From contig JAGMBW010000071.1 in the NCBI GenBank assembly GCA_023129535.1, positions 1 to 54,977 of the forward strand: 54,977 nt of DNA. The letters are read 5' to 3'. The position numbers and the translations under genes are program-made. Positions within the stretch are counted from its first letter, which is position 1; each line of letters begins with the position of its first letter. The notes under the pieces were generated by a model that saw nothing but the letters and a program-made list of their open reading frames with translations, searched no databases and was not told the origin of the DNA. Below are positions 7,314 through 52,927 of this stretch, piece by piece. This DNA comes from Desulfobacterales bacterium. GTDB lineage: Bacteria; Desulfobacterota; Desulfobacteria; Desulfobacterales; C00003060.

Positions 7314-7370
7314 GGACCAGTGCGCATTTTGCTTGACATGTGTGTGCTTCTTGGTTATTCGATGGCGGAT

Positions 7371-7441
7371 AGGGCAAAGCGCATAGCGCATAGCGTTTTC
7401 TTGCTTTATGGTTTATGCGCTTTGCTCTATGCGCTATGCGC
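7371..7441. repeat. (GCGCATA)n / (TATGCGC)n inverted heptamer arms after lon
   Basis: GCAAAGCGCATAGCGCATAGCG ... TATGCGCTTTGCTCTATGCGCTATGCGC. Confidence 0.8.
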
Positions 7442-7462
7442 TTATACGATTAACCCCTTTGG

Positions 7463-10589: not shown

Positions 10590-12355
10590 ACATGTTTTAA
10601 GTCCCCTATGAGGGGATTTAGGGGTGGGCAGCGGCGTAAGGTGCGTGAATTGGGGGCGTAGGTGAAATCGTTGTCTCGGTTTCTATGAGTCAACGATTTC
10701 ACCGAAGGCCCTTCCGCTTTGGGTGGGTAGCTTCAAAAACGGCGTCACGATGTGGGGATGGTGGTAAATACTGGCTGGGTTTGGGTTTATGGGTCAGAGA
10801 CAGTATTGATGACCATCCCCATATCGTGGCCACCACCAGGCTCTTTTAAGTCCCCTATGAGGGGATTTAGGGGTGGGTAGGGGTCAAAAAATTGCGTCAC
10901 CACGTGGGGAGGGCCGTAAATACTGCCTGGCTTTGGGGTCTCTGGATATCAGGCAGTCTTTATGGCAGGGTCCCCACGTAGTGACATCGACTTAAAAAAT
11001 GGTGTCACCCGGTAGCGCTGAGATGTGTGAGGCGGGCATAGCGTTGTTTCTCCGTTGCCTTATTGGCGGGAATAGCCTCGCTATTGCACTGCCGAGTGAC
11101 ATCCTCCAGTAAGGGCGGGTGGGCGGGTTAATCTCTTCGTTGCCACTCGACATGTTATGAAGTGCGGATGTGGTGTTCGATTTCGGAGGGGGTGCTGGGC
11201 GTCTTGAAAGTTGTGTGGGTTAGCCTGTGGTTTTTTGTGGCCACGTATCTGCTTAGCTTCGTGCCGATCCCGGTGGCTACGACGTGCGCCGCCTGGGATG
11301 GATGGGTTGAATTGGGGGCGTAGGTGAAATCGTTGTCTCGGTTTCTATGAGTCAACGATTTGACCGAAGGCCCTTCCGCTTTAGGTGAGTAAATTCAAAA
11401 CTGGCGCCACGACGTGGGGACGGCGATAAATGCTGTCGGGCTTTGGTTTTATGGGTAGGAGACAGCATTGATGGCCGTCCCTACGTCGTGACTACCACCA
11501 GGTGTTTTAAGTCCCCTATGAGGGGATTCAGGGGTGGAGAGCGGCGTAAGGCGCTTAAACTGGGGGCCGTAGGTGAAATCGTTGTCTCGGTGGCCATGAG
11601 ACAACGATTTCACCTACGGCCCTTCCGCTTTGGGTCGGGTAGATTGAAAAACGGCGTTACGACATGGGAACGGCGGTGAATACTGTCGGGCTTTGGTTTT
11701 ATGGGTAACAGGCAGTATTCATGGCCGTTCCCATGTAGGGACCACCGCTTGAATGTTTTAAGTCCCCTATGAGGGGATTCAGGGATGGGTAGCGGCGTAA
11801 GGCGCATGAATTGGGGGCCGTAGGTGAAATCGTTGTCTCCGTTTCTAGGAGACATCGTTTTCACCGAAGGCCCTTCCGGTTTGGGCGGTCTGGCGTGAGG
11901 TGGGGGTAAAGACGTTGTTTCGGGGCTGGAGGATCGGTTGAAGTGTTTGCCAGAGCAAACACTTTATCCGATGCGGAGTTTGAGGCTTCAAGAATCAAAA
12001 ATTGGGGGCCGTAGGTCAAGTGGTTGACTCAGGGAGACAACGACTTGACCGAAGGTCCTTCCGCTTATTGGGGGCCGTAGGTGAAATCGTTGTCTCCGTT
12101 TCTAGGAGACATCGTTTTCACCGAAGGCCCCTGGGGTTTGGGTAGGTAGATTCAAAAAAGGCGTCACGATGTGGGGACGGTGATAAATACTGTCGGGCTT
12201 TGGTTTTATGGGTTACAGGCAGTATTGATGGCCGTCCCCACATCGTGACTACCAGCAGGCTCTTTTAAGTCCCCTATGAGGGGATTTAGGGGTGGGTAGC
12301 GGCGTAAGGCGCGTGAGTTGGGGGCCGTAGGTGAAATCGTTGTCTCCGTTTCTAG
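10590..12355. repeat. Mosaic tandem array of three hairpin modules (A, B, C), left part
   Basis: Module A (TTTTAAGTCCCCTATGAGGGGATT) is at about 10595, 10844, 11505, 11756 and 12263. Module B (GTAGGTGAAATCGTTGTCTC...GAGACAACGATTTCACC) is at about 10650, 11311, 11560, 11811, 12001, 12068 and 12319. Module C (90-nt hairpin) is at about 10741, 10895, 11402, 11652 and 12159. Confidence 0.85.
11155..11235 (-). pseudogene. Relic of the 3' end of a PAPS-reductase-like gene (paralogue of 15495-16202)
   Basis: 11155-11230 is near-identical at nucleotide level to 15495-15570. It encodes ...THTTFKTPSTPSEIEHHIRTS* versus ...THKTFKTRSTVSEIEHRIRTS*, and no upstream body is present. Confidence 0.5.
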
Positions 12356-28233: not shown

Positions 28234-28373
28234 GGTTCAGCGGTTCAACGTTCAGAGGTTAAAACCGCGAACCATGAACCCTGAACCGTGAACGGTAGCA
28301 TGGGTATTGTGCTGTAAAGTGATAGATGTCAATAGATTATAACCTTTGAACGTTGAACCCTGAACCGTGAACC
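28234..28373. repeat. (GGTTCAN)n / (GAACCNT)n heptamer arrays in the divergent promoter region
   Basis: Read directly from the sequence. The same family recurs at 34750-34795. Confidence 0.75.
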
Positions 28374-34517: not shown

Positions 34518-34803
34518 CCATCTTTCTTCTTCTGGCTTCTACCCACAGATATAGAAACTTCTTCCTTACTCTTGATGCAGTCCTCATCTGGATTGTTGGG
34601 TTGAGCGCAGGGTTGCGCCTGACGGCTTGAGAACATTACACTTCGTGTCGTTCCTCCCCGCCTGCCAGCGCCACGTACCGCATCGAGTTTACATGCTGGC
34701 ATCTCTGGCAATGGCGGGCAGGAACCCAACCTACTCCTGCGGCTCTCCAACCGTGAACCCTGAACCCGTGAACCGTGAACCCTTGAACCGTGAGCGGTTA
34801 CAT

Positions 34804-37029: not shown

Positions 37030-37475
37030 TTTAAGTCTTCCTTTGCGTCCTTTGCGCCTTTGCGGTGAGGTGAAGGGTTACTCTTTTTCTTAGGAAGCGT
37101 TATTTCCAAAATGCCGTTTTTAAAATATTCCACTGTATTTGCAATATCCACATCTGCCGGCAGCTCAATCTCTTCTTTGAATTCCTGTTCCTCGTGTTTG
37201 GCAAAAATGATATACCTGTCAGGTTTTATATCGATGCTTACCTCGCCCCTTGAAAAACTACCCATGTCTATTATAATCTTCACCTCTTTCGCTTCTCTGA
37301 ACACGTCCACAAGAGGTTCTCTTATTTTCTTAAAAATAGGCTTGGTTTCATATATCCACTGTCGAGGTCTCCTGTAGACCTTTGGCTCAAACCGCCTCTC
37401 TTCCCGTCCCTTTCTAAGACTGCTAATTTTTCTATGCGCGCCTATACTTGTTATGGGTGGTATGCTCCTAATCAT
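37026..37475 (-). CDS. Hsp20/alpha-crystallin family protein
   Basis: VDVFREAKEVKIIIDMGSFSRGEVSIDIKPD...IELPADVD...FKNGILEITLPKK. The start and stop overlap both neighbours. Confidence 0.8.
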   Translation of the reverse strand: MIRSIPPITSIGAHRKISSLRKGREERRFEPKVYRRPRQWIYETKPIFKKIREPLVDVFREAKEVKIIIDMGSFSRGEVSIDIKPDRYIIFAKHEEQEFKEEIELPADVDIANTVEYFKNGILEITLPKKKSNPSPHRKGAKDAKEDLK

Positions 37476-39793
37476 GATCGTTTATCCTTATCGCCAAATA
37501 CAATTTCACCCATCTTGTTCAAATCAGCTACCCCCCGGACCTCATGGGGAAACAAGGGAACTTTTGTTACAATACGGGCGGGAAACCTTGAATGAATCTT
37601 TTTCATATATCCCTGCTGCTCCATCCTTTTGCAGGAGCAAAAATCACAATCCGTTTGGGGAATGACCATGTTGATTGCGATGTGATTACAGGGGACCCTG
37701 GCGCTCTCCAAGGCGTCTACAAGTCGTTCCAGCTCAAGAAAGCCCATGGCCTCAGGGATAGTCACCGCGACAAAAGCCGTTCTTTTGACGTCCACGAATG
37801 CCTCCTGAATCCTCCTCACATTCCTGGACATGGCCAGTGCCTTTTCAGCGGCCTTGGCCAACCTGACCACTCCCCTGTATTTCAACAACAACCTGAAAAA
37901 TGCCTTCAACCATTCCCTGACCATATCAGGAAGCTCCAAAAAGCGAAGAAGGTGGCCGGTGGGAGAGGTATCCAGGATAAAGATATCAAATTTTCCTTCC
38001 TTCTTCAGATCCATGATCATATCCAGGGCCATGATCTCGTCGAGACCCGGCGGCGCAAGGGTAAACAGTTCCGTCATGACCTCACGGTCGAATTTTATAT
38101 CAACGCCGCTGGTCAAAAATCTGTCGAAGAGTGCTTCTATGTCTTTCTTGTACCCCTCCTTGAAATCCTCAAACAACTTATCCGCATCTATCTCCAAAGC
38201 GAAAAGATTGGTATTGACAGGTCCAAGGTCCGAGGTCCAATGTCCAAGGTCCGAGGAGTTGTCCAAAGTCCGAGGTCCAATGTCCAATGTCTTTCCATGG
38301 TTACCTGCTGACTTTGGACTTTGGACTTTGGACTTTGGACCCATCACTTCCGACTTTGGACTTTGGACAGTTCTTGGACTTTGGACTTTGGACGTTGGAC
38401 TATAATCTATTGGCGTCACCTTATCCCCAATCGTCAACTTAAACGAATCGGACAGGGAATGGGCTGGGTCCGTGGAGAAAACAAGGACCTTTTTTCCTGG
38501 ATTACATCGCGCCAAATGAAGTGAGGCGGCTGAAGCAAGGGAGGTCTTGCCCACTCCGCCCTTGCCGCCAAAGAGGACAAATTCGAGATCGGGATCGAGG
38601 GTCAGATACGCCTGGGGCTCTTCATCAGTCTGAGCTACCTTCGGCAGTCTGTAAGGCTTGCCCTTTCCTAAGAGATAGTCCGCCAGGCCTTTCAGTTCTT
38701 CGACCCCTCGGATCTCCCTGGGAAACAACGGGACTTTTATCAAATTATATAGTGAAAAAACATCTTCGATTTCGGACAAAGGCTCCCTTTGATCCTCTTT
38801 TTTTGCTGTGCAAAACGCACAGCCTTCGCTATCCCCGACCCTGTTGACGACAATCTCCTTCACCGGGATGTGGTTCTTGTCCAGACTGCTCAGGAGTCTC
38901 CTGGTCTCATATATACTCATTGGCTCCGGAATAGTCACCGGAACGAACCGGGTTATCTTCTCGTTCGAGAGGAGCTTTTTAACCCTATCAATATCCGAGG
39001 AGAGGTTGTCGAGGAAAATATCACACTCATCTTTGACATACCTTTTTCCGGTAAAATGGGCAGCCATGTAACGGTGCTTGTGCTGCATCAGATCCATAAC
39101 CTCAACCCATTTCAGCATCTGTTCGGGAAGGGCAAGCATCCGCATGGTGTGCCCGGCCGGGGCAGTATCCACTATCAGGATATCATAACTTCCCTCCTTC
39201 AAAATATTGGCTATCTCGATGATGGCCATGACCTCATCCATGCCCGGAAGCGAAAGGTCGAAAAATTCGGCAATGTCCTGCTGGTCAAAATAGGTTCCCC
39301 TCTTCGCAAGTTTCTTCATTACGGGATCATTCTTCTCTCTGAACTCCTCTAACAACCTGTTTGCATCTAACTCACGCGCAAACAAGTTTGCGCGGTCCGA
39401 TGTCCGTTGTCCAATGTCCAATGTCTGATGTTGTCCGATGTCAGACGTCCCGCCATGATCCCTGCCCGAGCTTGGACTTTGGACCTTGGACCTTGGACTT
39501 TGGACTTTGGACCTTGGACGCATCACTTCTGACTTTGGACTTTGGACTTTGGACTTTGGACTATAATCTATTGGTGTGACTTTATCCCCTATCTCTATCC
39601 CAAAGCTATCGCCCAGGGAATGGGCCGGATCGGTCGATATGACCAACACCTTCTTGTCGCTGGGATAAGACCGGGCCAACTGCACAGCCGCAGCCGCAGC
39701 CATGGTAGTCTTGCCCACGCCGCCCTTTCCACCGAACAGGATCAAGCGCAGGTCTCTGTTCTGAAAATATTCAGGTACCCTGCGGGAAATCAT
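37472..39793 (-). CDS. Tandem (two-domain) ArsA/Get3-family ATPase with repeat-encoded insertions in both halves
   Basis: Two GGKGGVGKT(T/S) P-loops, two STDPAHSL motifs and two DT(A/S)P(A/T)GHT(M/L)R switch motifs. Insertions are at 39389-39568 and about 38215-38400. Confidence 0.9.
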   Translation of the reverse strand: MISRRVPEYFQNRDLRLILFGGKGGVGKTTMAAAAAVQLARSYPSDKKVLVISTDPAHSLGDSFGIEIGDKVTPIDYSPKSKVQSPKSEVMRPRSKVQSPRSKVQSPSSGRDHGGTSDIGQHQTLDIGQRTSDRANLFARELDANRLLEEFREKNDPVMKKLAKRGTYFDQQDIAEFFDLSLPGMDEVMAIIEIANILKEGSYDILIVDTAPAGHTMRMLALPEQMLKWVEVMDLMQHKHRYMAAHFTGKRYVKDECDIFLDNLSSDIDRVKKLLSNEKITRFVPVTIPEPMSIYETRRLLSSLDKNHIPVKEIVVNRVGDSEGCAFCTAKKEDQREPLSEIEDVFSLYNLIKVPLFPREIRGVEELKGLADYLLGKGKPYRLPKVAQTDEEPQAYLTLDPDLEFVLFGGKGGVGKTSLASAASLHLARCNPGKKVLVFSTDPAHSLSDSFKLTIGDKVTPIDYSPTSKVQSPRTVQSPKSEVMGPKSKVQSPKSAGNHGKTLDIGPRTLDNSSDLGHWTSDLGPVNTNLFALEIDADKLFEDFKEGYKKDIEALFDRFLTSGVDIKFDREVMTELFTLAPPGLDEIMALDMIMDLKKEGKFDIFILDTSPTGHLLRFLELPDMVREWLKAFFRLLLKYRGVVRLAKAAEKALAMSRNVRRIQEAFVDVKRTAFVAVTIPEAMGFLELERLVDALESARVPCNHIAINMVIPQTDCDFCSCKRMEQQGYMKKIHSRFPARIVTKVPLFPHEVRGVADLNKMGEIVFGDKDKRS
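38215..38400. repeat. Palindromic heptamer array (GTCCAAN)n...(TTGGACN)n translated in frame within ArsA half 2
   Basis: Read directly from the sequence. It encodes ...SKVQSPRTVQSPKSEVMGPKSKVQSPKS...TLDIGPRTLD...HWTSDLGP. Confidence 0.85.
39389..39568. repeat. Palindromic heptamer array translated in frame within ArsA half 1
   Basis: Encodes DYSPKSKVQSPKSEVMRPRSKVQSPRSKVQSPSS...TSDIGQHQTLDIGQRTSD, at the same structural position (after GDKVTPID) as in half 2. Confidence 0.85.
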
Positions 39794-43813: not shown

Positions 43814-44584
43814 CTAATCCGGAACATATTGTACTTTATTCCTACAATGTCTACATTCCATAACTCTTCCATCAGTTTTAAGTACTATATCTCCATCACA
43901 ATGTGGACATTTCTCTTTGCTTGTCGGCCCTGCTGGGGGCTTTGTGGACTTGCTTTTATGTGGCTTAAGAGGCGCTGGAGTGTACGGCTTAATTGGCACA
44001 GGGGTGTATGGCTTCAGTGGTGCTGGACTGTACGGCTTAAGCGGTGCTGGAGTGTAGGGCTTCGGTGGTACTGGTTTGTACGCTTTGAGCGGTGCTGGAG
44101 TGTAGTCCTTTAATGGTGCAGGCTTGTAGGCTTTAAGGGGCACGGGAGTGTAGTCCTTTAACGGTACAGGTTTGTAAGGCTTAAGAGACGCCGGAGTGTA
44201 GTCCTTCAATGGTGCCGGTTTATACGGCTTAAGCGGTGCTCGGGTGTAGGGCTTGAGTGGAACCGGAGTATAGTCCTTTAATGGCACTGGCGTGTACGGC
44301 TTAAGAGCTGGCGTGTACGGCTTCGATGGTTCTGGTTCGTATGCCTTGAGCGGCGCTGGACTATAGTCCCTCAATGGCGCTGGTTTGTACGCCTTAGTAG
44401 GGACAGGGGTGTACGGCTTGAGTGGAACTGGCTTGTATGGCTTAAGCGGCACAGGAGTGTAGGCATTCAGTCGCTTAGGCTTATAGGAAGGCCTGGATTT
44501 GGATCTGGGATGGTCTTTACCCCGCTTTATGAATTTTTCCCTCCACCTTTTATCCTTAATTATCTCTTGAGCCTTTTCTTGCAT
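43814..44584 (-). CDS. Proline-rich octapeptide-repeat protein (about 20+ x PLKxYxPx) with a C-terminal zinc ribbon
   Basis: The repeats span about 43940-44470. The C-terminus has CPHCDG...CRHC. Confidence 0.7.
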   Translation of the reverse strand: MQEKAQEIIKDKRWREKFIKRGKDHPRSKSRPSYKPKRLNAYTPVPLKPYKPVPLKPYTPVPTKAYKPAPLRDYSPAPLKAYEPEPSKPYTPALKPYTPVPLKDYTPVPLKPYTRAPLKPYKPAPLKDYTPASLKPYKPVPLKDYTPVPLKAYKPAPLKDYTPAPLKAYKPVPPKPYTPAPLKPYSPAPLKPYTPVPIKPYTPAPLKPHKSKSTKPPAGPTSKEKCPHCDGDIVLKTDGRVMECRHCRNKVQYVPD

Positions 44585-44662
44585 TGTTGTACCTCCTTTC
44601 CCACCCAGCTAAACTGATTTTTCATGGAAACGAAAAACATCATTGTTATCAGTGGTCAGTTA

Positions 44663-45622
44663 TCAGTGGGTATTGTTCAAAGTCCGAGGTCCAAGGTCCG
44701 GAGTCTTGCCATGCTCGCTTACTGACTTTGGACATTGGACTTTGGACAATCTTATCTCCAGCAAATTGTTTTTCAGATGCATCTGATGGTTATCAGAGTT
44801 TACCTCAGCGGGCAGACGGATGATTTCCTTCCAGGTGGAATCAGTCTTCTCGGATCTGACCGTAACCTGGTCTCTGTTGACCTCAAGCCTTAAATCGGAC
44901 GCCTCGGTCCCTCTCACTTCCATGATGACCTGTATATGGGAAGCTTCATCGAATATATCCAATACCCGGTCTTTACTCTGTATCCGTTTCTCCTGCTGCC
45001 CCATCAGCCACCAGCTAAATAAAACCTTTTCTCCGGTTTCCGGGTCCACCCTTGATCTTTCAAAAGAGAGAATCGGACATCCAACCGTCTTTTCTGCGAT
45101 GGGATTGATCGTCTCCTTGATGTTCAGAAGGATATGCATATGGTTTGGCGCATCGATCAGTTCGGCCAACTCGTCGATCCTGGCGTGGCGATTCTCCCAC
45201 AGGTACCACAAGATATCCCGGCTTTCAGGATCTAATTGAGCAGCAATCTTTTCAATAGTCTCCTGATCGACCTTTAAAAGTGAGGTTTGATAGATTATTT
45301 TTTTCCGCCAGTCTCCCAAATCGTTTGCGACGAACCAGATCTTGCCTTCCCTTGAGCCGTTTCTGGCTTTATAGACAATACATAAGGATTCCCTTTTTCT
45401 GAGAACATAGTGAAGCCTTTCTATTGCCAAATCCTTAATTTGGTCGAGTGGGATCTCAAATCTAATTGTTGGCCTCTGATACATAATAAACCTCTGGCTG
45501 GTCAGAAGACACTGGGCTACTTTCCAGCCAGAGCGAAAATTATGCTTATACGACCCCTGGCCCTGTAGTATTAGCTGTTCGCCTGTTTGAAGTCTCGGAG
45601 TGTTGGCTTTTTGGGAAATCAT
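44663..45622 (-). CDS. Multidomain protein: N-terminal PH/GRAM-like domain, central domain, C-terminal Hsp20-like domain
   Basis: WKVAQCLLTSQRFIMYQRPTIRFEIPLDQIKDL resembles a PH-like domain. VLDIFDEASHIQVIMEVRGTEASDLRLEVNRDQVTV...NNLLEIRL resembles an alpha-crystallin domain. The last 25 or so aa are encoded by the heptamer array. Confidence 0.7.
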   Translation of the reverse strand: MISQKANTPRLQTGEQLILQGQGSYKHNFRSGWKVAQCLLTSQRFIMYQRPTIRFEIPLDQIKDLAIERLHYVLRKRESLCIVYKARNGSREGKIWFVANDLGDWRKKIIYQTSLLKVDQETIEKIAAQLDPESRDILWYLWENRHARIDELAELIDAPNHMHILLNIKETINPIAEKTVGCPILSFERSRVDPETGEKVLFSWWLMGQQEKRIQSKDRVLDIFDEASHIQVIMEVRGTEASDLRLEVNRDQVTVRSEKTDSTWKEIIRLPAEVNSDNHQMHLKNNLLEIRLSKVQCPKSVSEHGKTPDLGPRTLNNTH

Positions 45623-45626
45623 TATT

Positions 45627-45658
45627 CGTTGCTGGTTGCTGGTTGCTGGTTGCTGGTT
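45627..45658. repeat. (GTTGCTG)n heptamer array, left flank of four-helix-bundle gene A
   Basis: Near-complementary to (AACGAGC)n at 46075-46105. Confidence 0.85.
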
Positions 45659-45667
45659 AAATGCGAA

Positions 45668-46039
45668 TTATTTCCATTCGGTTTCGACATATTGAATAAA
45701 TTTGTTGATCTTTCTTCCAAGTTTGTCATTTTTTTCTTTTAGTTCTTTATAAAGTTGAACACTGATATATCCTGAGTCATGGATAAAATCCAAATGAACT
45801 TGAGTTTCATCGCATGATGCTTGCGCATAAACCAAAAACTTCACAAAATCATTCTTGTATCTTCTTCTTCCGTACCCCTCCACAATACAGGAACAAACCC
45901 CTTTTGAGGACCTCCTTATCTGACTACCTTCCTCATAAAGTTCGTATTTGGGTAGTTTCAAAGACATATGATGTATCTTCATTGCCAATTCATACGCCAA
46001 TTGATAGATCTCCAAATCACGATAGCTTTTCGGCCTCAA
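45668..46039 (-). CDS. Four-helix-bundle protein (23S rRNA intervening-sequence protein / Avd-like family)
   Basis: YRDLEIYQLAYELAMKIHHMSLKLPKYELYEEGSQIRRSSKGVCSCIVEGYGRRRYKNDFVKFLVYAQASCDET. Confidence 0.85.
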   Translation of the reverse strand: MRPKSYRDLEIYQLAYELAMKIHHMSLKLPKYELYEEGSQIRRSSKGVCSCIVEGYGRRRYKNDFVKFLVYAQASCDETQVHLDFIHDSGYISVQLYKELKEKNDKLGRKINKFIQYVETEWK

Positions 46040-46074
46040 AGGTTCCCTCCTTTTTTCATTTCTCGCTATTTTTT

Positions 46075-46105
46075 AACGAGTAACGAGCAACGAGCAACGA
46101 GCAAC
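46075..46105. repeat. (AACGAGC)n heptamer array, right flank of four-helix-bundle gene A
   Basis: The reverse complement GTTGCTC differs by 1 nt per unit from the left-flank unit GTTGCTG. Confidence 0.85.
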
Positions 46106-46123
46106 ACAACCCACAACCTCATT

Positions 46124-47872
46124 TTACACTTTCTCCAGCAACTTCCTCAACTCACTCGTCCTTTCTTCAATGACTCCACTTTCCCCTTCAGCCAGTGCCT
46201 CTTTCAGATTCAAAATAGCCCTCTCAATCTCGCCCAAACAAGAAAGTGACTGTTTCTCCTCGTTCTCCTCGATGACTAATTCGGCTGCACGGATCATGTT
46301 GTCGGCCTGGATATTGATTTCCACCTCCTCGCGTCTCTTCATATCTTCTTCGGCATGCGCTTCGGCTTCCCTGACTGCCTGTTCTACCTGGTCATCCGAC
46401 AACAGGTGTGAGGCGTCAATCCTTATGCCGGTCTGTTCTTCGGTATGAAGATCCTGGGCGGAGACCTTTACTATTCCGTTGACATCGATCTTAAAGGTAA
46501 CCTCCACCTGTGCCTTTCCCCTGGGCAGGGGCGGAATGTCGGTCAACTGGAATTTCCCCAGGCTGATATTATCTGCTGCTGCCTCCCGCTCACCTTGAAG
46601 CACGTGGATATCCATCACGGTTTGATCGTTTTCAGCGTTGGTAAATATCTGCCCGGCGGAAGTGGGAATTGTAGAATTGCGAGGGATGATCCTTGCAAAA
46701 AGGCTGCCCTGTGTTTCAAGCCCTAATGAAAGGGGGGTTACGTCTACTAATACGACATCGTTAATCTCTCCCATCAAAACACCTGCCTGGACAGCCGCTC
46801 CAATTCCTACCACCTCATCCGGGTTGATCTTAATGTAAGGGTTTTTATGAAAGGTTTTTTCCGCCAGACGGCGAATAGACGGCATCCGGGTGGAGCCACC
46901 CACCAGCACGACCCGATCAATCCCTTCCGTAGTCAATTTGGCATCGGCTAAGGCCTGCCAGGTAGGTCCGAGAAGTTTTTCCTTCAAGTCTGCGGTTATA
47001 GCTTCGAATGTTTCCCGATCAATTGAAGCCTCCAGATTGCTGAGCTCGCCGCTGTGGGTCCCACCCGCTCGTCCACCTTTGGCGGAATAGCAGGCAGGTT
47101 TGATAAAAGGGAGGGAGATTTTAGTCCTAAGTTTGTAAGAAAGTTCCCTCTTGGCCTTTTCACTGGCCTCTTTCAGACGCTGGAGTGCCATTTTGTCCGA
47201 TTTCATGTCAAACCCATGCTCATTCATGAATTTCTCGGCCAGATAATCAACCAGCCTTTCGTCCCAGTCATCGCCGCCAAGTCTGGTATTTCCGCTCACA
47301 GCTTTAACCTGGAAGAGACCATCTCCCAGCTCCAGGATGGACACGTCAAATGTCCCTCCTCCCAGATCCCAGACAAGAATGGTCTGAATCTCTTCACGAT
47401 TGAGCCCATAGGCCAGGGAGGCCGCTGTAGGCTCGTTGATTATCCTCATCACATCAAAGCCGGCCATCATACCGGCCTCTTTGGTCGCCTGCCGCTGTCC
47501 ATCATTGAAATAGGCCGGAACCGTGATGACCGCCTTTTCCACCTGCTCTCCCAGGTACTTCTCCACGTCTGATTTTATCTTGCGCAAAATAAAGGCCGAT
47601 ATCTCCTGTGGGGAATAAGCTCTGCCATTTACCGATACTCTATAATCGGTGCCCATATGCCTCTTAATGGATACAACCGTCTTTTCCGGATTGGCTGCGG
47701 CCTGTCTTCTGGCTACCGATCCGACCAGTTTATGCCCCCGCACGGTTTCGGCAAAGACAGAAGGGGTGAGGTTCTGGCCTTCGGCGTTCTTGATCACTTT
47801 GGCCCGCCCATCTTCTATTAGGGCCGCCACTGAGTAAGTGGTTCCCAGGTCTATGCCGATTGCTTTGGTCAT
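46124..47872 (-). CDS. Hsp70/DnaK-family chaperone paralogue (582 aa)
   Basis: IGIDLGTTYSVAA, VWDLGGGTFDVSIL and LVGGSTRMP. The ATG at 47872 is preceded by GAAGGAGA. The upstream 40 codons of the called ORF are heptamer-array read-through. Confidence 0.9.
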   Translation of the reverse strand: MTKAIGIDLGTTYSVAALIEDGRAKVIKNAEGQNLTPSVFAETVRGHKLVGSVARRQAAANPEKTVVSIKRHMGTDYRVSVNGRAYSPQEISAFILRKIKSDVEKYLGEQVEKAVITVPAYFNDGQRQATKEAGMMAGFDVMRIINEPTAASLAYGLNREEIQTILVWDLGGGTFDVSILELGDGLFQVKAVSGNTRLGGDDWDERLVDYLAEKFMNEHGFDMKSDKMALQRLKEASEKAKRELSYKLRTKISLPFIKPACYSAKGGRAGGTHSGELSNLEASIDRETFEAITADLKEKLLGPTWQALADAKLTTEGIDRVVLVGGSTRMPSIRRLAEKTFHKNPYIKINPDEVVGIGAAVQAGVLMGEINDVVLVDVTPLSLGLETQGSLFARIIPRNSTIPTSAGQIFTNAENDQTVMDIHVLQGEREAAADNISLGKFQLTDIPPLPRGKAQVEVTFKIDVNGIVKVSAQDLHTEEQTGIRIDASHLLSDDQVEQAVREAEAHAEEDMKRREEVEINIQADNMIRAAELVIEENEEKQSLSCLGEIERAILNLKEALAEGESGVIEERTSELRKLLEKV

Positions 47873-47889
47873 AAGTCTCCTTCGGAGAC

Positions 47890-48000
47890 GTCCGTTGTCC
47901 GTTGTTAGTTGTCCGTTGTCGATTCTCCGGTTGCAGGTTGCAGGTTGCAGGTTGCAGGTTGCAGGTTGCAGGTTGCAAGTTGCAGGTTGCAAGTTGCAGG
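47890..48000. repeat. (GTCCGTT)n and (GGTTGCA)n heptamer arrays, left flank of four-helix-bundle gene B
   Basis: About 10 units of GGTTGCA/AGTTGCA, complementary to the units at 48403-48461. Confidence 0.85.
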
Positions 48001-48020
48001 CTGAAGGTTACGGGTTGCGA

Positions 48021-48386
48021 CTACTTCCATTCTTTTGCGACATACTCGATGAATTTGTTAATCTTCTTGCCCAGTTTGTAATACTCATTCAGGAGAAACG
48101 ATAGTTCTGTTTCATCAACTTCATGGGTATCTTTGATGAAATTCAGATGCAGAGTTGTTTCATCGCACGATGCGTGAGCATAGATCAGGAACTTAATAAA
48201 GTCGGCTTTATATCTTCTCCGCCCATAGCCTTCTACAATTGAGGACGTAATTCCTTTCGAGGAGCGTCTTATTTGGCTTCCCTCTTCATAAAGTTCATAT
48301 TTTGGCAAGGTTAATGACATCCTATGTATTCTGACTGCCAGATCATAAGAGAGAGTGTAGATTTCCAAATCCCTGTAGCTCTTCAC
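48021..48386 (-). CDS. Four-helix-bundle protein (23S IVS protein / Avd-like), copy B
   Basis: A GTG start at 48386 follows AAGGAG. KSYRDLEIYTLSYDLAVRIHRMSLTLPKYELYEEGSQIRRSSKG closely matches copy A. Confidence 0.8.
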   Translation of the reverse strand: MKSYRDLEIYTLSYDLAVRIHRMSLTLPKYELYEEGSQIRRSSKGITSSIVEGYGRRRYKADFIKFLIYAHASCDETTLHLNFIKDTHEVDETELSFLLNEYYKLGKKINKFIEYVAKEWK

Positions 48387-48402
48387 TATATCAACTCCTT
48401 GA

Positions 48403-48502
48403 CCTGCAACTCGCAACTCGCAACCCGCAACCTGCAACCTGCAACTTGCAACTTGCAACTTACCCACTACCCACTGACCACTGACAACGGACCACTGATC
48501 AC
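48403..48502. repeat. (CTGCAAC/TCGCAAC/TTGCAAC)n then (CCACTGA)-type arrays, right flank of gene B
   Basis: The reverse complement of the units equals the GTTGCAG units on the left flank. Confidence 0.85.
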
Positions 48503-49579
48503 TTTCTTCCTCGCACTCACCCACCCACATCCGGAGCATCCTTGCTCTAACAATTCCTTTATGGAAGCCGTTCTTCCGCACTGGGGGCAGGTCTCAGTTT
48601 CTTGCTCTGTCTGGGATTCTACCCGCCCGCTTATGATTCTCTTGAGTATTTTGTTCCATTCCTCCAGGGCATCACCCGAAAAGGTGGCCACTCTTCTTGT
48701 GCCGTTAGCGGCATAGAGGAGATCCAGGACCTTCTCTTTCTTCAGAATATTAGTGAGGTCTCTTGTTTCCATCATCGAACCTATTATTCCACTTACAGGA
48801 ATCTCTATGACTATCCTTCGTTCAAAGTTATACCACCAACACACTCTTTTATCAGTAAGATACAAGTAACCGGGCCTCCAGGTGTCCTCTATAATGCCCT
48901 CTGCATCCATCAGATACCACATCTTCCCACTGCAAATAAGCTGCTCTCCCTGGGCTAAGAACTCTGCCGCCCTTTCTTCAAGAACTGGAATCTCTGGATC
49001 TTTTTTCAGGACAAGCCCCAGCTCTTTCATCCTTTTCTCTATGGTCTCTTTCAGTTGATCTATATCTAGACCACTCAGTCTTGCTATCTTGCTCCCTTCC
49101 AGAAGCAGATATAACTCTTCCCTCTCTTTTTTTTCGGTGAAATGCTCCCCTTTCCTGATCAGCAGACTCTGTATCTTCATCAGGGGAGTCTCGAATAAGA
49201 CTTCCCCAAAATCTTCATGATAGAGGAGCAACCTCTCGCTGGTCAGGTAAAGGTAGCCATATCTCCAGGCTGTATATATCCCTTCACTTGAGTAGTATGC
49301 CCCTAACATCTTGAGGATGACCTCTTCTCCCTGCACCATGCAGCTTTTTTTCTTGCTTCTGTGCTCCTGCTCCCAGTCCCGGATACGTTCATCCCACGCC
49401 TGCATCATCCCGTATTTCAGCATGGTATCCATACCGGCCAGGGCTGCCCTCAGATTAACCCCGATTAAAGGAATGCCCGCAACCGATACGATCAGGTCGG
49501 CATGGATCACCAGGCCCTTGTCCAGCACCCGATCAAGAAGATCGACTAGAGTTGCGTTGGTGTTACGTTGAGGATCCAT
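48467..49579 (-). CDS. GvpA/GvpJ-domain protein fused to two PH/GRAM-like domains and a C-terminal zinc ribbon
   Basis: LVDLLDRVLDKGLVIHADLIVSVAGIPLIGVNLRAALAGMDTMLKYG is a GvpA core. There are two GYLYLT(S/D)(E/K)R modules, and CPQCGR...GCSGCGW. The ATG at 49579 begins MDPQRN. Confidence 0.85.
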   Translation of the reverse strand: MDPQRNTNATLVDLLDRVLDKGLVIHADLIVSVAGIPLIGVNLRAALAGMDTMLKYGMMQAWDERIRDWEQEHRSKKKSCMVQGEEVILKMLGAYYSSEGIYTAWRYGYLYLTSERLLLYHEDFGEVLFETPLMKIQSLLIRKGEHFTEKKEREELYLLLEGSKIARLSGLDIDQLKETIEKRMKELGLVLKKDPEIPVLEERAAEFLAQGEQLICSGKMWYLMDAEGIIEDTWRPGYLYLTDKRVCWWYNFERRIVIEIPVSGIIGSMMETRDLTNILKKEKVLDLLYAANGTRRVATFSGDALEEWNKILKRIISGRVESQTEQETETCPQCGRTASIKELLEQGCSGCGWVSARKKVISGPLSVVSG

Positions 49580-49584
49580 AAGAT

Positions 49585-49720
49585 TGTCCGAAGTCCAACG
49601 TCCAAAGTCCAAGGTCCTAAAGAAGTCCAACGTCCGAAGTCCAATGTCCAACGTCGGATGTCATTCAGACCTTGGACATCGGACATTGGACTTGTGATAT
49701 TGGACATTGGACATATTAAA
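49585..49720. repeat. (GTCCAAN)n followed by (TTGGACA)n arrays, left flank of four-helix-bundle gene C
   Basis: Complementary to the (TTGGACN)n array at about 50104-50148. Confidence 0.8.
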
Positions 49721-49721
49721 A

Positions 49722-50087
49722 TCACTTATCACCCTTCAAATAACGGATAAATCCACTAATTAGCTTCTTGACTACTACGGCCTTTTCATAAACTTCATTA
49801 AATTGTTCCTTTGAAATGTACTCTTGATCAAGAGCAACATAAGAGTGAGATTGAACTTCGGATGCAGACCGGCGGGAATAGATTAGGAACCGGATGAACT
49901 CTGCATCGGACTGAGAATCAAATCCTTCTGCTATGTTTGACATTACCGAAATTGAGGCACCTTCCATCTGATCTCTTAACCTATAGCTTTTGATAAGATT
50001 GCCAACTGAAGTGATTCCAAAAACCATTTTTGTTAGGATTCTACCTTCTTGCCAAGCCTTAATATCTTCAAAGCGCTCGATCTTCAT
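49722..50087 (-). CDS. Four-helix-bundle protein (23S IVS protein / Avd-like), copy C (divergent)
   Basis: FEDIKAWQEGRILTKMVF...SNIAEGFDSQSDAEFIRFLIYSRRSASEVQSH. Confidence 0.8.
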   Translation of the reverse strand: MKIERFEDIKAWQEGRILTKMVFGITSVGNLIKSYRLRDQMEGASISVMSNIAEGFDSQSDAEFIRFLIYSRRSASEVQSHSYVALDQEYISKEQFNEVYEKAVVVKKLISGFIRYLKGDK

Positions 50088-50151
50088 TACAAATCACCTC
50101 CAACTTTGGACATTGGACTCTGGACTTTGGACATCGGACATTGGACATTCT

Positions 50152-51252
50152 TCAAACAAATGAGTATGGTGCCCAAGGCCCGGTATATCGAACGGAAAAA
50201 CCCTCCAGGGCATCGATCTTTTCCACCTCATCTCCCAGCCCTTTACTCCCGTCCCCAGGAAGCAAACAGGATAGATTCATGAGCATCTGTTTGTTTTCGT
50301 CCTCTGTTTTTTTTGTCTTTTCTACACGGAGGTCATTCACGTGGGGTTTGATTCTCTCATAGAATTCCTTAAAGTATCGGTCTGCCTGCTTTTCCATCTC
50401 CTTTTTCAAAAGGTCTTCCAGTTTCTGCCTGTACATGTAGGCCAGGCCTCTCGGTTTGGACTTTATTTCTTCGTCCAACTTCTTTATTTCAACACTTTCT
50501 TCGGTAATCTTTTGAGCCATAACTTTAGAATCCCAAAATACCTGCACCCCGTATTCTGCCCTGCCTCTGACCTTTTCCATCTTCGCTTTCAGGTTTTCGT
50601 AATCCTCCTTTAACCAATTCCTCATATTCTCTTCCGGGTCAGAAGCCTCATTCCCTCGAATGATGGTGTCAAACCCCATAGGAAGCACGGTACCATATCT
50701 TTCCCAGGCCGCATCGACCACTTTTTGATGGGCCACTATCCAGCCTTTCACAACCTCTTGATCTTCTGATTGGTATGGCTCAGCAGGACAATTATGGACT
50801 ACGGCACAGAGATCTTTGTAAGGAATGCTATAGACCTCGTTGCCTTCTATGCCGATCCTGCCAAGATTTACGCTCTCGCTGCCTTCGACAATGCAGTAAA
50901 GGTATCTTCCGCTCATTAGTCCAATGTCCAATGTCAGAGGTCCAATGTCAGAAGACTGAGGTCCAGGGTCTGAGCTATGAGGTCCGACGTCCGATGTTCG
51001 GTGTCCGATGTCCGGTTTCCTACGACTTTGGACTTTGGACTTTGGACATTGGACGTTTTGAAATGCAACATCCATAGACAACGCCCCTTCCTCTTCCACC
51101 ATTTCTTCCAGAACCCCGGTAATGGAGTCCCGAATGGCCGTCCTGAGTTCTGGCAGAAGAGAAGTGCTTACTATTTCTCTTATCGTATCTTCATTCTCGG
51201 CAAGAATATCCCTTATCTCTTGCTTCACCATCTTTTTAATTGTCTCTTTCAT
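50152..51252 (-). CDS. gvpF: GvpL/GvpF family protein, core from the ATG at 50916; possibly carrying a repeat-linked N-terminal helical extension from 51252
   Basis: The core MSGRYLYCIVEG...YKDLCAVVH...WIVAHQKVV...VLPMGFDTI...RYTGPWAPYSF is a typical GvpF/L. There is no stop between 51252 and 50916, a segment encoded by the heptamer array, and no Shine-Dalgarno site before 50916. Confidence 0.8.
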   Translation of the reverse strand: MKETIKKMVKQEIRDILAENEDTIREIVSTSLLPELRTAIRDSITGVLEEMVEEEGALSMDVAFQNVQCPKSKVQSRRKPDIGHRTSDVGPHSSDPGPQSSDIGPLTLDIGLMSGRYLYCIVEGSESVNLGRIGIEGNEVYSIPYKDLCAVVHNCPAEPYQSEDQEVVKGWIVAHQKVVDAAWERYGTVLPMGFDTIIRGNEASDPEENMRNWLKEDYENLKAKMEKVRGRAEYGVQVFWDSKVMAQKITEESVEIKKLDEEIKSKPRGLAYMYRQKLEDLLKKEMEKQADRYFKEFYERIKPHVNDLRVEKTKKTEDENKQMLMNLSCLLPGDGSKGLGDEVEKIDALEGFSVRYTGPWAPYSFV

Positions 51253-51337
51253 GCTCTGCGCCTGAAGTCCAATGTCCGACGTCCAATGTCCGAAGTCCAA
51301 TGTCCAAGGTCGAAGGTCCGAGATCAAGGGCGATGAC

Positions 51338-51679
51338 TTACGACATTGGACCTTGGACATTGGACCTTGAACTGTTAGTTCCTTCCCACCTCTCCGGATT
51401 GATCATCTTATCTAATAGTTCATCCACAATATTATCCAGGCCGTCTCTTACCGATTTGACCGACTCGCTGATTCCCTGCTCCTTTTTCATCTCGTCGATT
51501 GCTGTGTCGAGATCCATCAATGCCTGTCCTAACCTCTCGGTCTCTTCTTCGGTGAGGCTTCCCCCTTCCATCCTTTTCAATGCCTGAAGTCTGAGGGCAT
51601 CCTTGATGATCTCGACCAGGGCGACGACTAACCCCATGACTCCGTGTTTGAGATTTTTCTCGTCAATGTCTATGGGCAT
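51338..51679 (-). CDS. gvpK: Gas vesicle protein GvpK
   Basis: GLVVALVEIIKDALRLQALKRMEGGSLTEEETERLGQALMDLD matches the GvpK signature. Confidence 0.8.
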   Translation of the reverse strand: MPIDIDEKNLKHGVMGLVVALVEIIKDALRLQALKRMEGGSLTEEETERLGQALMDLDTAIDEMKKEQGISESVKSVRDGLDNIVDELLDKMINPERWEGTNSSRSNVQGPMS

Positions 51680-51860
51680 AATCAGTGGTCAGTGGTCAGT
51701 TGTCAGTTGTTATTGGTCACATGTTGCATGTGGCATGTTGCAGGTTGCAGGTTACAGGTTGTGCACTCCCTCTCCCGTGACAGGATTTACGAAATCACCT
51801 CAGACGTCCGACTTCTGACCTCCGACCTCCGACCTCCGACTTCTGACTTTGGACCTTGAC
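51680..51860. repeat. Mixed heptamer arrays (CAGTGGT, GTTGCAG, CTCCGAC families)
   Basis: Read directly from the sequence. Partly complementary to the arrays at 52143-52365, so the two sets bracket the plus-strand small gene. Confidence 0.8.
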
Positions 51861-51911
51861 ATCGATTTCTTGAAATGCTATTATGAACATAAATTAGAGG
51901 AGGCCGGGAAA

Positions 51912-52142
51912 ATGGATGATATCAGCAAAACCGTAGGTGGTTTCCGAGCCGCTATCCAGGACCTTTTGGTCCCTGAGCTTAAAGCTATACAAAGAGAATT
52001 AAGACACCAGAGCGAGATATTGGGCAGGCAGCATATTAAACAAGAAGTGAGCCAATATACTTCCAAGACCAATGCCCTGGAAAAGCGCGTGGATGATCTC
52101 TGGGCATTGCTTAAAAGCTCTCGCTTTTTCCCTTCCACGTAA
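51912..52142 (+). CDS. Small coiled-coil protein, paralogue of 34218-34517
   Basis: AGGAGG Shine-Dalgarno site. MDDISKTVGGFRAAIQDLLVPELKAIQ is near-identical to the paralogue at both nucleotide and protein level. It is the only plus-strand gene inside the island. Confidence 0.65.
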   Translation: MDDISKTVGGFRAAIQDLLVPELKAIQRELRHQSEILGRQHIKQEVSQYTSKTNALEKRVDDLWALLKSSRFFPST

Positions 52143-52365
52143 GCATCTCCCCTTCTTTTTTTTTGTCCAAAGTCCGAGGTCCAAAGTCCAAAGTCGTATA
52201 TTGCTCTGACAAACGACAAATGACATTGGACATTGGACAGTAAGCTGTATCGTGCGTGTATCGTGTATCCAGCATCCTATATCGTGCAATGAGCAACAAG
52301 CAACGAGCAACCTGTAACGAGCAACGTGCAACGTGCAACCAGGAACGAGCAACCAGCAACTCCCT
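52143..52365. repeat. Mixed heptamer arrays (GTCCAAA, TTGGACA, GTATCGT, AACGAGC families)
   Basis: Read directly from the sequence. Confidence 0.8.
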
Positions 52366-52725
52366 CTACGGACTGATCTTTTGGGCCAGTGCCTTCGCCT
52401 TGGCACTGATCCAGCCGCACCAGGGGCAGCCGGTCGTTATAAGTTCCTCAATAGGAACCCTCTTTTCGCATTGAGGGCAATTTTCCCTGGCTATGAGTGC
52501 CTCTGTCCAGGCGGGGGTCTCCAAATTGGTTCCTGAAGGAAATTCCAAACCATACTTGGCTGCCGTCTCAAAGGATGCCAGGGCGGCCCTAATCTTGATC
52601 CCAAGCAGTTCAACGCCTGCCACAGATACGGTAATGTCTGCGTTAATGACCAATCCCTTATCCAGGATTTTGTCTATTACGTCAGCTAAACCGCCGCCAC
52701 CATTTCGAGATGGTTCTATAGCCAT
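52366..52725 (-). CDS. GvpA/GvpJ-family gas vesicle structural protein with a C-terminal zinc ribbon
   Basis: LADVIDKILDKGLVINADITVSVAGVELLGIKIRAALASFETAAKYGL is very close to the canonical GvpA core. The C-terminus has CPQCEK...GCPWCGW. Confidence 0.88.
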   Translation of the reverse strand: MAIEPSRNGGGGLADVIDKILDKGLVINADITVSVAGVELLGIKIRAALASFETAAKYGLEFPSGTNLETPAWTEALIARENCPQCEKRVPIEELITTGCPWCGWISAKAKALAQKISP

Positions 52726-52927
52726 TTCTGGTCTCCTTTAAAATTCCAAGTAGTGTCAGTCGATCGTTGTCAGTTGTCCGTTGAACGGAATGCAAAACAA
52801 AATCATTTCAAACACATGTCCCCACTATATTGGCAGTTTTGGCGTTTCATCCAAATGTCCAAAAATACAAGCACAACTGACTACCGACAACTGACCACAG
52901 ACACTACCGAATTTTTGGGACGTTAAA

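Follow-up and report, generated by a model that had tools for sequence, protein, structure and literature searches.

Putative intervening-sequence-type stem-loop gene cassettes in the intercistronic spacers of a Desulfobacterales gas-vesicle operon

The 23S rRNA intervening sequences (IVSs) of Leptospira, Coxiella burnetii, Xanthomonas, and Brucella have terminal inverted repeats that pair into a stem, the loop of which contains an open reading frame (ORF) of the S23p/PF05635 family. The Coxiella IVS is 428 nt long, lies in helix 45, and is closed by a 28-bp terminal stem within which RNase III cleavage has been mapped. Two to three tandem heptamers are located just upstream of its ORF, a member of the PF05635 family (PMC4990558). 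Three genes of this family, here called A, B, and C, are found on contig JAGMBW010000071.1 of a Desulfobacterales bacterium, whose 54,977 nt make up the window analyzed here. Each gene is bracketed by complementary heptamer arrays and sits in the gas-vesicle operon of this contig. With a probability of roughly 65%, the three are IVS-type stem-loop gene cassettes in the intercistronic spacers of this operon.

Other described repeat elements share parts of this arrangement. REPtrons are composed of a REP-associated tyrosine transposase (RAYT) gene flanked by inverted REPs, with REP/REPIN copies dispersed elsewhere (PMC3116915, PMC3337134). As in the cassettes, a short repeat lies in inverted orientation on either side of one small gene, the same repeat is dispersed as solo intergenic hairpins, and each gene clade has its own repeat class. 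The cassette genes match PF05635 only, a four-helix bundle, and have no Y1 (IS200/IS605-like) transposase fold or catalytic motif; their arms consist of 7-8 nt tandem units, whereas REP palindromes measure 20-40 nt. The Correia repeat-enclosed elements of Neisseria form RNA hairpins that bind RNase III, are cut or protected, and alter the expression of adjacent genes (PMC2649163). These are likewise intergenic inverted-repeat elements co-transcribed with neighboring genes, but they lack an ORF, their terminal repeats are unique, and they are restricted to Neisseria. Miniature inverted-repeat transposable elements are defined by terminal inverted repeats, a target-site duplication, and no coding capacity; the cassettes have inverted arms but enclose an intact ORF, and the solo hairpins at 50919-51056 of the window and at 6950-6990 of the related locus L087 would fit this class.

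Tandem heptamers are also known as the TAACTGA arrays of Beggiatoaceae, cyanobacteria, and Bacteroidetes and as the short tandemly repeated repetitive (STRR) sequences, the origin of which was unexplained as of 2015 (PMC4679880). These arrays are intergenic, often lie within operons, and occur in taxa that overlap with those rich in PF05635. They have been described as direct arrays, whereas those of the cassettes are inverted pairs around a gene and the host belongs to the Desulfobacterales rather than the cyanobacteria. In the literature searched, no link between the STRR/TAACTGA repeats and the PF05635 family was reported, and heptamer arrays flanking a member of this family were described solely for the Coxiella rRNA element.

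Genes A, B, and C are members of the four-helix-bundle 23S IVS family, as a preliminary description of this stretch had proposed. Their PF05635 scores are 101, 87, and 98 bits (cut-off 33.8) and their TIGR02436 scores are 98 (97.7), 92, and 91 bits (cut-off 24). The A/B/C profile matches the four-helix-bundle pentamer structures 2GSC (XCC0516) and 2RLD with E-values of 2.4e-13 and 1.9e-8, respectively. A and B are 69% identical, while C and A share 26% identity. In all three cassettes, the 5' arm is followed by a good ribosome-binding site ahead of the start codon. Longer ORF calls for gene B (167-186 aa) enter the array and are probably over-extended. A tblastn search of the window for further family members found none besides these three.

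The arrays were located with Tandem Repeats Finder (TRF) and a separate period-7 scan, and both agree with an inverted-repeat search on the complementary heptamer flanks first described at all three genes. The identical sequence is present in four independent assemblies, the longest copy being a 63.9-kb metagenome scaffold, and the arrays are therefore no assembly artifact. The arms of cassette A are complementary save one C.C mismatch per unit and are paired in the minimum free energy fold. In cassette B, the inner arrays read (GGTTGCA)x12.9 at 47929-48018 and (TGCAACT)x8.1 at 48405-48461 on the forward strand. They form an inverted repeat of 58 nt at 90% complementarity, or of 107 nt at 70% when the outer arrays (47890-47920 and 48461-48503) are included. 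The long stem of cassette C joins 49622-49665 with 50092-50135 (44 nt, 82% complementary), and its forward-strand array is TTGGACA x6.3 at 50106-50149. The GTCCAAN bracketing of gene C is less specific than the brackets of A and B because similar arrays fill nearly all spacers of the cluster.

Folding was performed on the minus-strand RNA, which is the operon strand, and compared with dinucleotide shuffles. The folds of cassettes A, B, and C have energies of -131, -231, and -191 kcal/mol and z scores of -3.0, -8.0, and -6.8, and no shuffle reached any of these energies. In each fold, a long-range stem closes the ORF. Stems of 30-60 bp are thus predicted to enclose the ORFs on the operon transcript, in agreement with the long stem and looped ORF that had been suggested. 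The coordinates of the cassettes and of neighboring features are collected in Table 1.

Table 1. Cassettes, hairpins, and other features of the gas-vesicle region (positions in the window).
Feature	Position	Strand	Description
Gas-vesicle gene cluster	37-55 kb	-	GvpA/J, GvpK, GvpL/F, GvpA-GRAM fusion, Hsp70, Hsp20-like, ArsA-like ATPase
Cassette A 3' arm	45628-45658	-	(CAGCAAC)n on gene strand, begins 9 nt past stop codon; TRF (GTTGCTG)x4.4, 100% match
Gene A	45668-46039	-	123 aa, TTG start, AAGGAGG ribosome-binding site upstream; PF05635 E 4e-29
Cassette A 5' arm	46075-46105	-	(GTTGCTC/GTTACTC)n on gene strand; TRF (AACGAGC)x4.4, 95% match
Cassette B 3' arm	47890-48020	-	Inner (TGCAACC)x12.9 directly past stop codon, plus outer (AACGGAC)n
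Gene B	48021-48386	-	121 aa, GTG start after AAGGAG; PF05635 E 1.3e-24
Cassette B 5' arm	48402-48503	-	Inner (GTTGCNN)x8 plus outer (GTGGTCA/GTGGGTA)n, nested arrays
Cassette C 3' flank	49586-49714	-	NTTGGAC/GTCCAAN arrays; local hairpin of 49591-49633 with 49651-49693
Gene C	49722-50087	-	121 aa, ATG start after GGAGGTGA; PF05635 E 3.4e-28
Cassette C 5' arm	50092-50149	-	(GTCCAAN)x6 on gene strand, right after upstream GvpL/F stop codon
Solo hairpin	50919-51056	-	GTCCAAN/NTTGGAC arrays, no enclosed gene; inverted-repeat search
Solo hairpin	51264-51369	-	GTCCAAN/NTTGGAC arrays, no enclosed gene; inverted-repeat search
Fourth bracket, left arms	51682-51847		TCAGTGG, then CA(T/G)GTTG (GTTGC-type), then GACCTCC arrays
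76-aa coiled-coil ORF	51912-52142	+	Antisense to gas-vesicle operon; not IVS protein family
Fourth bracket, right side	52165-52360		GTCCAAA...GACATTG hairpin, then (GCAACGA/GCAACCA)x10.7 complementary to 51709-51761

The architecture is that of the 23S rRNA IVS, as had been claimed: a terminal stem, an ORF of the same family, and upstream heptamers are all found in the Coxiella element (PMC4990558). The ORF is sense to the host transcript in both settings. The heptamer copy number differs between Coxiella strains, and rRNA IVSs are sporadically distributed, with horizontal transfer inferred and an ORF prone to decay (PMC4990558). The settings differ in the host RNA, which is the spacer of a polycistronic mRNA here and helix 9, 25, or 45 of 23S rRNA there. 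The cassettes lie between co-oriented genes of a protein-coding operon, as initially described; a search of 37-55 kb gave no match to rRNA, and the neighbors are protein-coding gas-vesicle genes rather than 23S/16S rRNA helices. The stem of the Coxiella IVS is a unique 28-bp repeat, whereas the arms here are arrays of 4-13 heptamers. Cleavage in Coxiella removes the ribosome-binding site, but in the cassettes this site is inside the loop and would survive a cut in the stem. A further difference is that the ORFs here are under purifying selection. RNase III cleavage is proven for the rRNA elements and is inferred by analogy for the cassettes.

The bracketing of family genes was surveyed in 160 related loci. 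The A/B set is made up of 80 loci with A/B-like proteins from species-representative genomes, and the C set of 80 loci with C-like proteins from metagenomes. Other ORFs of the same loci served as the control, and a bracketing inverted repeat was defined by a score of at least 16. Such repeats bracket 29% of the family genes in the A/B set and 2% of the other ORFs; in the C set, the values are 29% and 3%. Arrays, the frequencies of which are lower bounds because the period-7 scan misses octamer arrays, occupy both flanks of 21% of family genes and 1% of other ORFs in the A/B set. On the same footing, their density is 1.39/kb within 300 nt of family genes vs. 0.04/kb elsewhere in the A/B set (35-fold), and 0.61/kb vs. 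0.11/kb in the C set (5-fold). Among 54 strongly bracketed cassettes, the arm period is 7 in 40, 8 in 7, and absent in 7.

The two arms of a cassette are matched to each other. In 33 cassettes of the A/B set, tandem GTTRCNN on one side is accompanied by NNGYAAC on the other. Within a cassette, the NN dinucleotides of one arm are complementary to those of the other at a rate of 0.308, compared with 0.116 for permuted partners, and none of 2000 permutations reached the observed value. The variable bases of the two arms therefore co-vary. Stem mismatches on the coding strand are G.U in 63 cases and A.C in 37 (p 0.006), which hints modestly at pairing in the sense RNA. Co-orientation with both neighbors is observed for 79 of 103 family genes (77%) and 51 of 97 control triplets (53%; p 4e-4). 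Information on the strand comes only from these two comparisons. GTTGC precedes GCAAC in 40 hairpins and follows it in 2, a polarity relative to the loop. Arm order was ruled out as a sign of gene orientation, on which it is silent because an inverted repeat reads alike on both strands.

Family genes were found in Desulfobacterota, Bacteroidota, and cyanobacteria, and copies on cyanobacterial plasmids are also bracketed by inverted heptamer arrays. The stem-loop cassette layout characterizes the protein family in several phyla and is no local accident. Bracketed family genes are located inside CRISPR-Cas operons, in the cas10/cmr3 and cas6/cas4 spacers of a Picosynechococcus plasmid (L176) and a Pseudanabaena plasmid (L178). 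Such copies may be the reason for the appearance of the family in CRISPR-association screens.

The repeat unit follows the protein subfamily. A/B-type genes in Desulfobacterales and Bacteroidales are flanked by GTTGCNN, and their relatives are located in unrelated operons (signaling, efflux, arginine synthesis, and mutL). C-type genes, at 76-96% identity, have GTCCAAN in nine of nine cases. More distant C-like genes have GGTTCNN units, as one clade does, or octamers such as GGTAGTCN, the L170-type genes have GTCATTN, and the L086_2-type genes have GTGGTCA/TGATCAC. Several units coexist in one genome, and a given unit tracks a given subfamily between genomes. It follows that the arms either move along with their ORF or are recognized by the protein. 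Intact C-type ORFs have dN/dS values of 0.05-0.18 (about 0.1), indicative of purifying selection, so the protein matters to the element or to the host.

Orthologous operons were identified via the GvpA-GRAM protein; the compared loci are labeled with L-numbers. Four of these operons (L085, L087, L169, and L171) have no family gene. Family genes are present at other spacers in L086 (two), L168, L170, and L009, and this patchy occupancy covers at least six spacers of the orthologous gas-vesicle operons. The spacer of gene C is occupied differently from locus to locus. In L009, an in-frame stop interrupts an L086_2-type pseudogene, and L168 has the first seven codons of the L086_2 type followed by a nested inverted-repeat element. 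In L086, the last ~40 codons of the L170 type remain with matching arms, and in L087 only a solo hairpin of L170-type arms is present. L169 and L171 have neither a family gene nor a bracketing hairpin in this spacer.

Divergence of the genes is similarly uneven. Between the window and L088, the synonymous divergence (dS) is 0.48 for gene C but has reached saturation in the genes on either side (GvpK, GvpL/F, and GvpA-GRAM). The locus nearest to the window is L092 by flanking genes and L088 by gene C. This discord reads as a signature of cassette exchange. Sequence comparison shows that many spacers of these operons have gained or lost cassettes or had them replaced or degraded. The patchy occupancy, the remnants, and the dS discord support the earlier suggestion that the cassettes are mobile.

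Two further insertions were observed in these operons. A non-coding element of ~250 nt with a near-perfect long inverted repeat, TTCACCGCAGAGGCGCAGAG...CTCTGCGCCTCTGCGGTGAA, is present in L085 (4060-4330) and L168 (7740-7975), with a fragment at 11075-11160 of L168. In both loci it is nested inside heptamer arms, in the same operon spacer, and it resembles a miniature inverted-repeat element that broke up a cassette already present there. The gene B spacer of L085 contains a DUF559/MTES_1575 gene (5602-5994) with a Vsr-like endonuclease fold instead of gene B. This is possibly another small selfish gene at the gene B spot.

Heptamer arrays are not limited to the cassettes. TRF detected dozens of period-7 tandem arrays in the window, which are intergenic and of the STRR type, and 23 of 28 window arrays fall in the 16-kb gas-vesicle region. 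The view that heptamer hairpin arrays are tied solely to four-helix-bundle genes did not hold, given the two solo hairpins of Table 1 and arrays within a coding sequence. The latter belong to a two-halved ArsA/GET3-like ATPase (ORF 37472-39793, minus strand) with in-frame GTCCAAN/NTTGGAC hairpin arrays at 38219-38401 and 39395-39562. Both inserts are located in the same surface loop of their half, after 'TPIDYSP' and before 'NLFA.E.D', and are translated as KSKVQSPKS... The insert length differs among the orthologs in L085, L086, and L169 and a paralog on the same contig.

In the favored reading, a cassette is composed of a 5' heptamer arm, a short leader that contains the ribosome-binding site, a four-helix-bundle ORF of ~120 codons, and a complementary 3' arm that begins a few bases past the stop codon. 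The cassette would be transcribed by read-through from the host operon, and its arms would pair in the RNA. RNase III would then probably cut the stem, as it does in the rRNA-borne member of Coxiella. Such a cut would free a small mRNA, ribosome-binding site included, and divide the polycistronic transcript there. At least some of the solo hairpin arrays found in other spacers would be relics of cassettes. Cassettes may insert into hairpin loops that already exist, as suggested by the nested arrays around gene B and in the fourth bracket and by the use of a single spacer by three subfamilies. The rRNA intervening elements likewise took the place of tetraloops.

Several points weigh against this reading. 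RNase III cleavage and pairing in vivo are drawn from analogy and prediction, and translating ribosomes could hold the stems open. Cassette A is mismatched in each unit and has a modest z score, the G.U excess is only modest, and the metagenomic loci of the survey are phylogenetically non-independent. No recombinase or target-site duplication was identified, duplications being unrecognizable beside tandem arrays, and the term 'mobile' therefore refers to comparative patterns only. The array classes of the cassettes are also present without any PF05635 gene. Such gene-less arrays, and the in-frame arrays of ArsA, where cleavage would destroy the message, indicate that the arrays have a life of their own. 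In addition, the 5' arm is G+T-rich in 30 of 31 cases in the A/B set, a polarity beyond a purely thermodynamic function of the stem.

A generic stem would need neither a fixed polarity, nor a repeat unit for each subfamily, nor GTCCRA arrays elsewhere in loci with C-type genes, and these features keep a REPtron-like alternative alive, although we consider it unlikely. In this two-component repeat system, similar to RAYT-REP/REPIN, the four-helix-bundle protein would bind the repeats of its own arms in a sequence-specific way, in the form of DNA or RNA hairpins, and maintain, spread, or regulate them in trans. The array-flanked gene would be the master copy and the solo arrays its non-autonomous copies, a view that partially overlaps with the favored reading. 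Five protein subfamilies each have their own unit, within and across genomes, and GTCCRA arrays occur in other spacers of all 10 loci with a C-type gene but only two of seven without (p 0.003). The constant polarity with a G+T-rich 5' arm, the purifying selection on the ORF, and the solo arrays at many sites, coding loops included, are also as expected of such a system. The related protein Avd has been described as a retroelement accessory protein (PMC10053308). However, the cassette protein has no catalytic domain, and nucleic-acid binding by free-standing members is at the stage of a proposal. Co-inheritance of the ORF and arms as a unit explains the subfamily units without binding, and the co-occurrence perhaps reflects just the shared ancestry of the loci. 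Two loci have GTCCRA arrays and lack a C-type gene within the stretch seen.

The broadest form of this alternative is equally tentative. PF05635/TIGR02436 proteins and arrays of 7-8 nt units would form a widespread two-component system, in which each subfamily recognizes its own hairpin and drives or polices its spread. The solo arrays of Desulfobacterota, Bacteroidota, and cyanobacteria, those of the STRR type, and the translated arrays may then be non-autonomous offspring.

It is quite improbable that the arrays are operator-like or RNA sites for a small protein that regulates itself or the gas-vesicle genes, with gene C a genuine component of the cluster. This would suit the relatives of gene C at 76-96% identity, all of which share its arm type and lie in gas-vesicle clusters. 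Every one of the nine C-type genes found follows a GvpL/F gene, in two different spacers, and these genes are conserved to the same degree as GvpA (91%) and under purifying selection. However, four orthologous clusters have no family gene, and the gene C spacer holds other subfamilies or pseudogenes elsewhere. Relatives of A and B are found in unrelated operons (signaling, efflux, arginine synthesis, and CRISPR).

Still less probable is coincidence, in which hairpin arrays are general in the spacers of this genome, as STRR sequences are in cyanobacteria, and the genes merely lie between them. Arrays do occur in nearly every spacer of the cluster and at gene-less sites, and those near gene C are all of one class, so that any two flanks would be complementary. 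This explanation is already contradicted by the survey, in which arrays are enriched 35-fold and 5-fold beside family genes across 160 loci of many taxa and control ORFs are bracketed in only 2-3%. The A/B unit also differs from the surrounding GTCCAAN and recurs around relatives in unrelated operons of other genomes. Finally, the genes share a fold superfamily with the Avd accessory proteins of diversity-generating retroelements, and gene A weakly matches the Avd model, but this reading is refuted: gene A scores 17.4 bits with NF033474 (cut-off 80), B and C do not match, no reverse transcriptase is among the called genes around the cassettes, and the repeats are short tandem arrays rather than a template/variable repeat pair. 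Of the earlier label 'Avd-like', only the fold family is retained.

The small plus-strand gene at 51912-52142 had been described as bracketed in the same way. The bracket itself is present: its arms (51709-51761 and 52308-52360) are 74% complementary over 53 nt, and the folds have z scores of -4.1 on the plus strand and -6.8 on the minus strand. The enclosed gene, however, is unrelated to the family. Profile searches gave no family match for the 76-aa ORF, and it was rejected as a degenerate PF05635 member, with an hhalign probability of 0.1% vs. A/B/C. A 55%-identical homolog with a 32-aa insertion is found at the same position in L088. A near-consensus extended -10 promoter-like site, TTGACA-17-TATTAT (51856-51884), precedes this ORF and is the sole strong site in the scan. 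Promoter-like sites in 44500-52900 number 12, compared with 10.0 expected from shuffles, and terminator-like sites number 7, compared with 8.6. Neither is in excess, and no terminator-like site is located at an array.

Other scans of the region were negative. Rfam searches of 37-55 kb at a relaxed threshold found no known RNA family, the hairpins giving sub-threshold chance matches to microRNA precursors, and PADLOC found no match to a defense system. Beyond the gas-vesicle cluster, arrays are located at 7365-7442, 2633-2691, 28234-28373, and 34749-34793. Their units are GCGCATA/TATGCGC, which form a clean inverted pair, GATTGAC/AATCAAC, and GAACCNN. A 251-bp tandem repeat at 11308-11885 (2.3 copies, 83% match) has an internal hairpin-like segment and is unrelated to the heptamer arrays. 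Within the cluster, the minus-strand ORF 43814-44584 encodes a proline-rich protein with a repeat of ~8 residues (PLKPYTPV, PLKDYTPA...), encoded by a 24-nt tandem repeat of ~15 copies, and a C-terminal zinc-ribbon-like CxxC...CxxC motif.

Many frames of the arrays have no stop codons, and the calls for Hsp70, gene B, GvpL/F, and other genes are over-extended through them for this reason. Spurious N-terminal extensions such as 'MQPATCNLQPATCNLQPATCN' are seen at 46124-47992, 48021-48581, and 50152-51360, both from ORF finders and in the deposited gene calls of L001. In practical terms, start codons and protein lengths are unreliable in array-rich regions, where gene callers run neighboring ORFs through the arrays.

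Genes of the PF05635/TIGR02436 family are abundant, and to our knowledge they have no known function, the rRNA intervening sequence being the only biology attached to them. If the cassettes live in ordinary mRNA spacers, and if their arms are heptamer or octamer arrays specific to each subfamily, the rRNA IVS would be one instance of a far wider class of elements, which may cut operon transcripts into pieces. On the same two conditions, the unexplained intergenic heptamers would gain candidates for a partner protein and for an origin. If the less likely and widespread two-component system were real, it would provide a function for a very large orphan family and an origin for the heptamer repeats.

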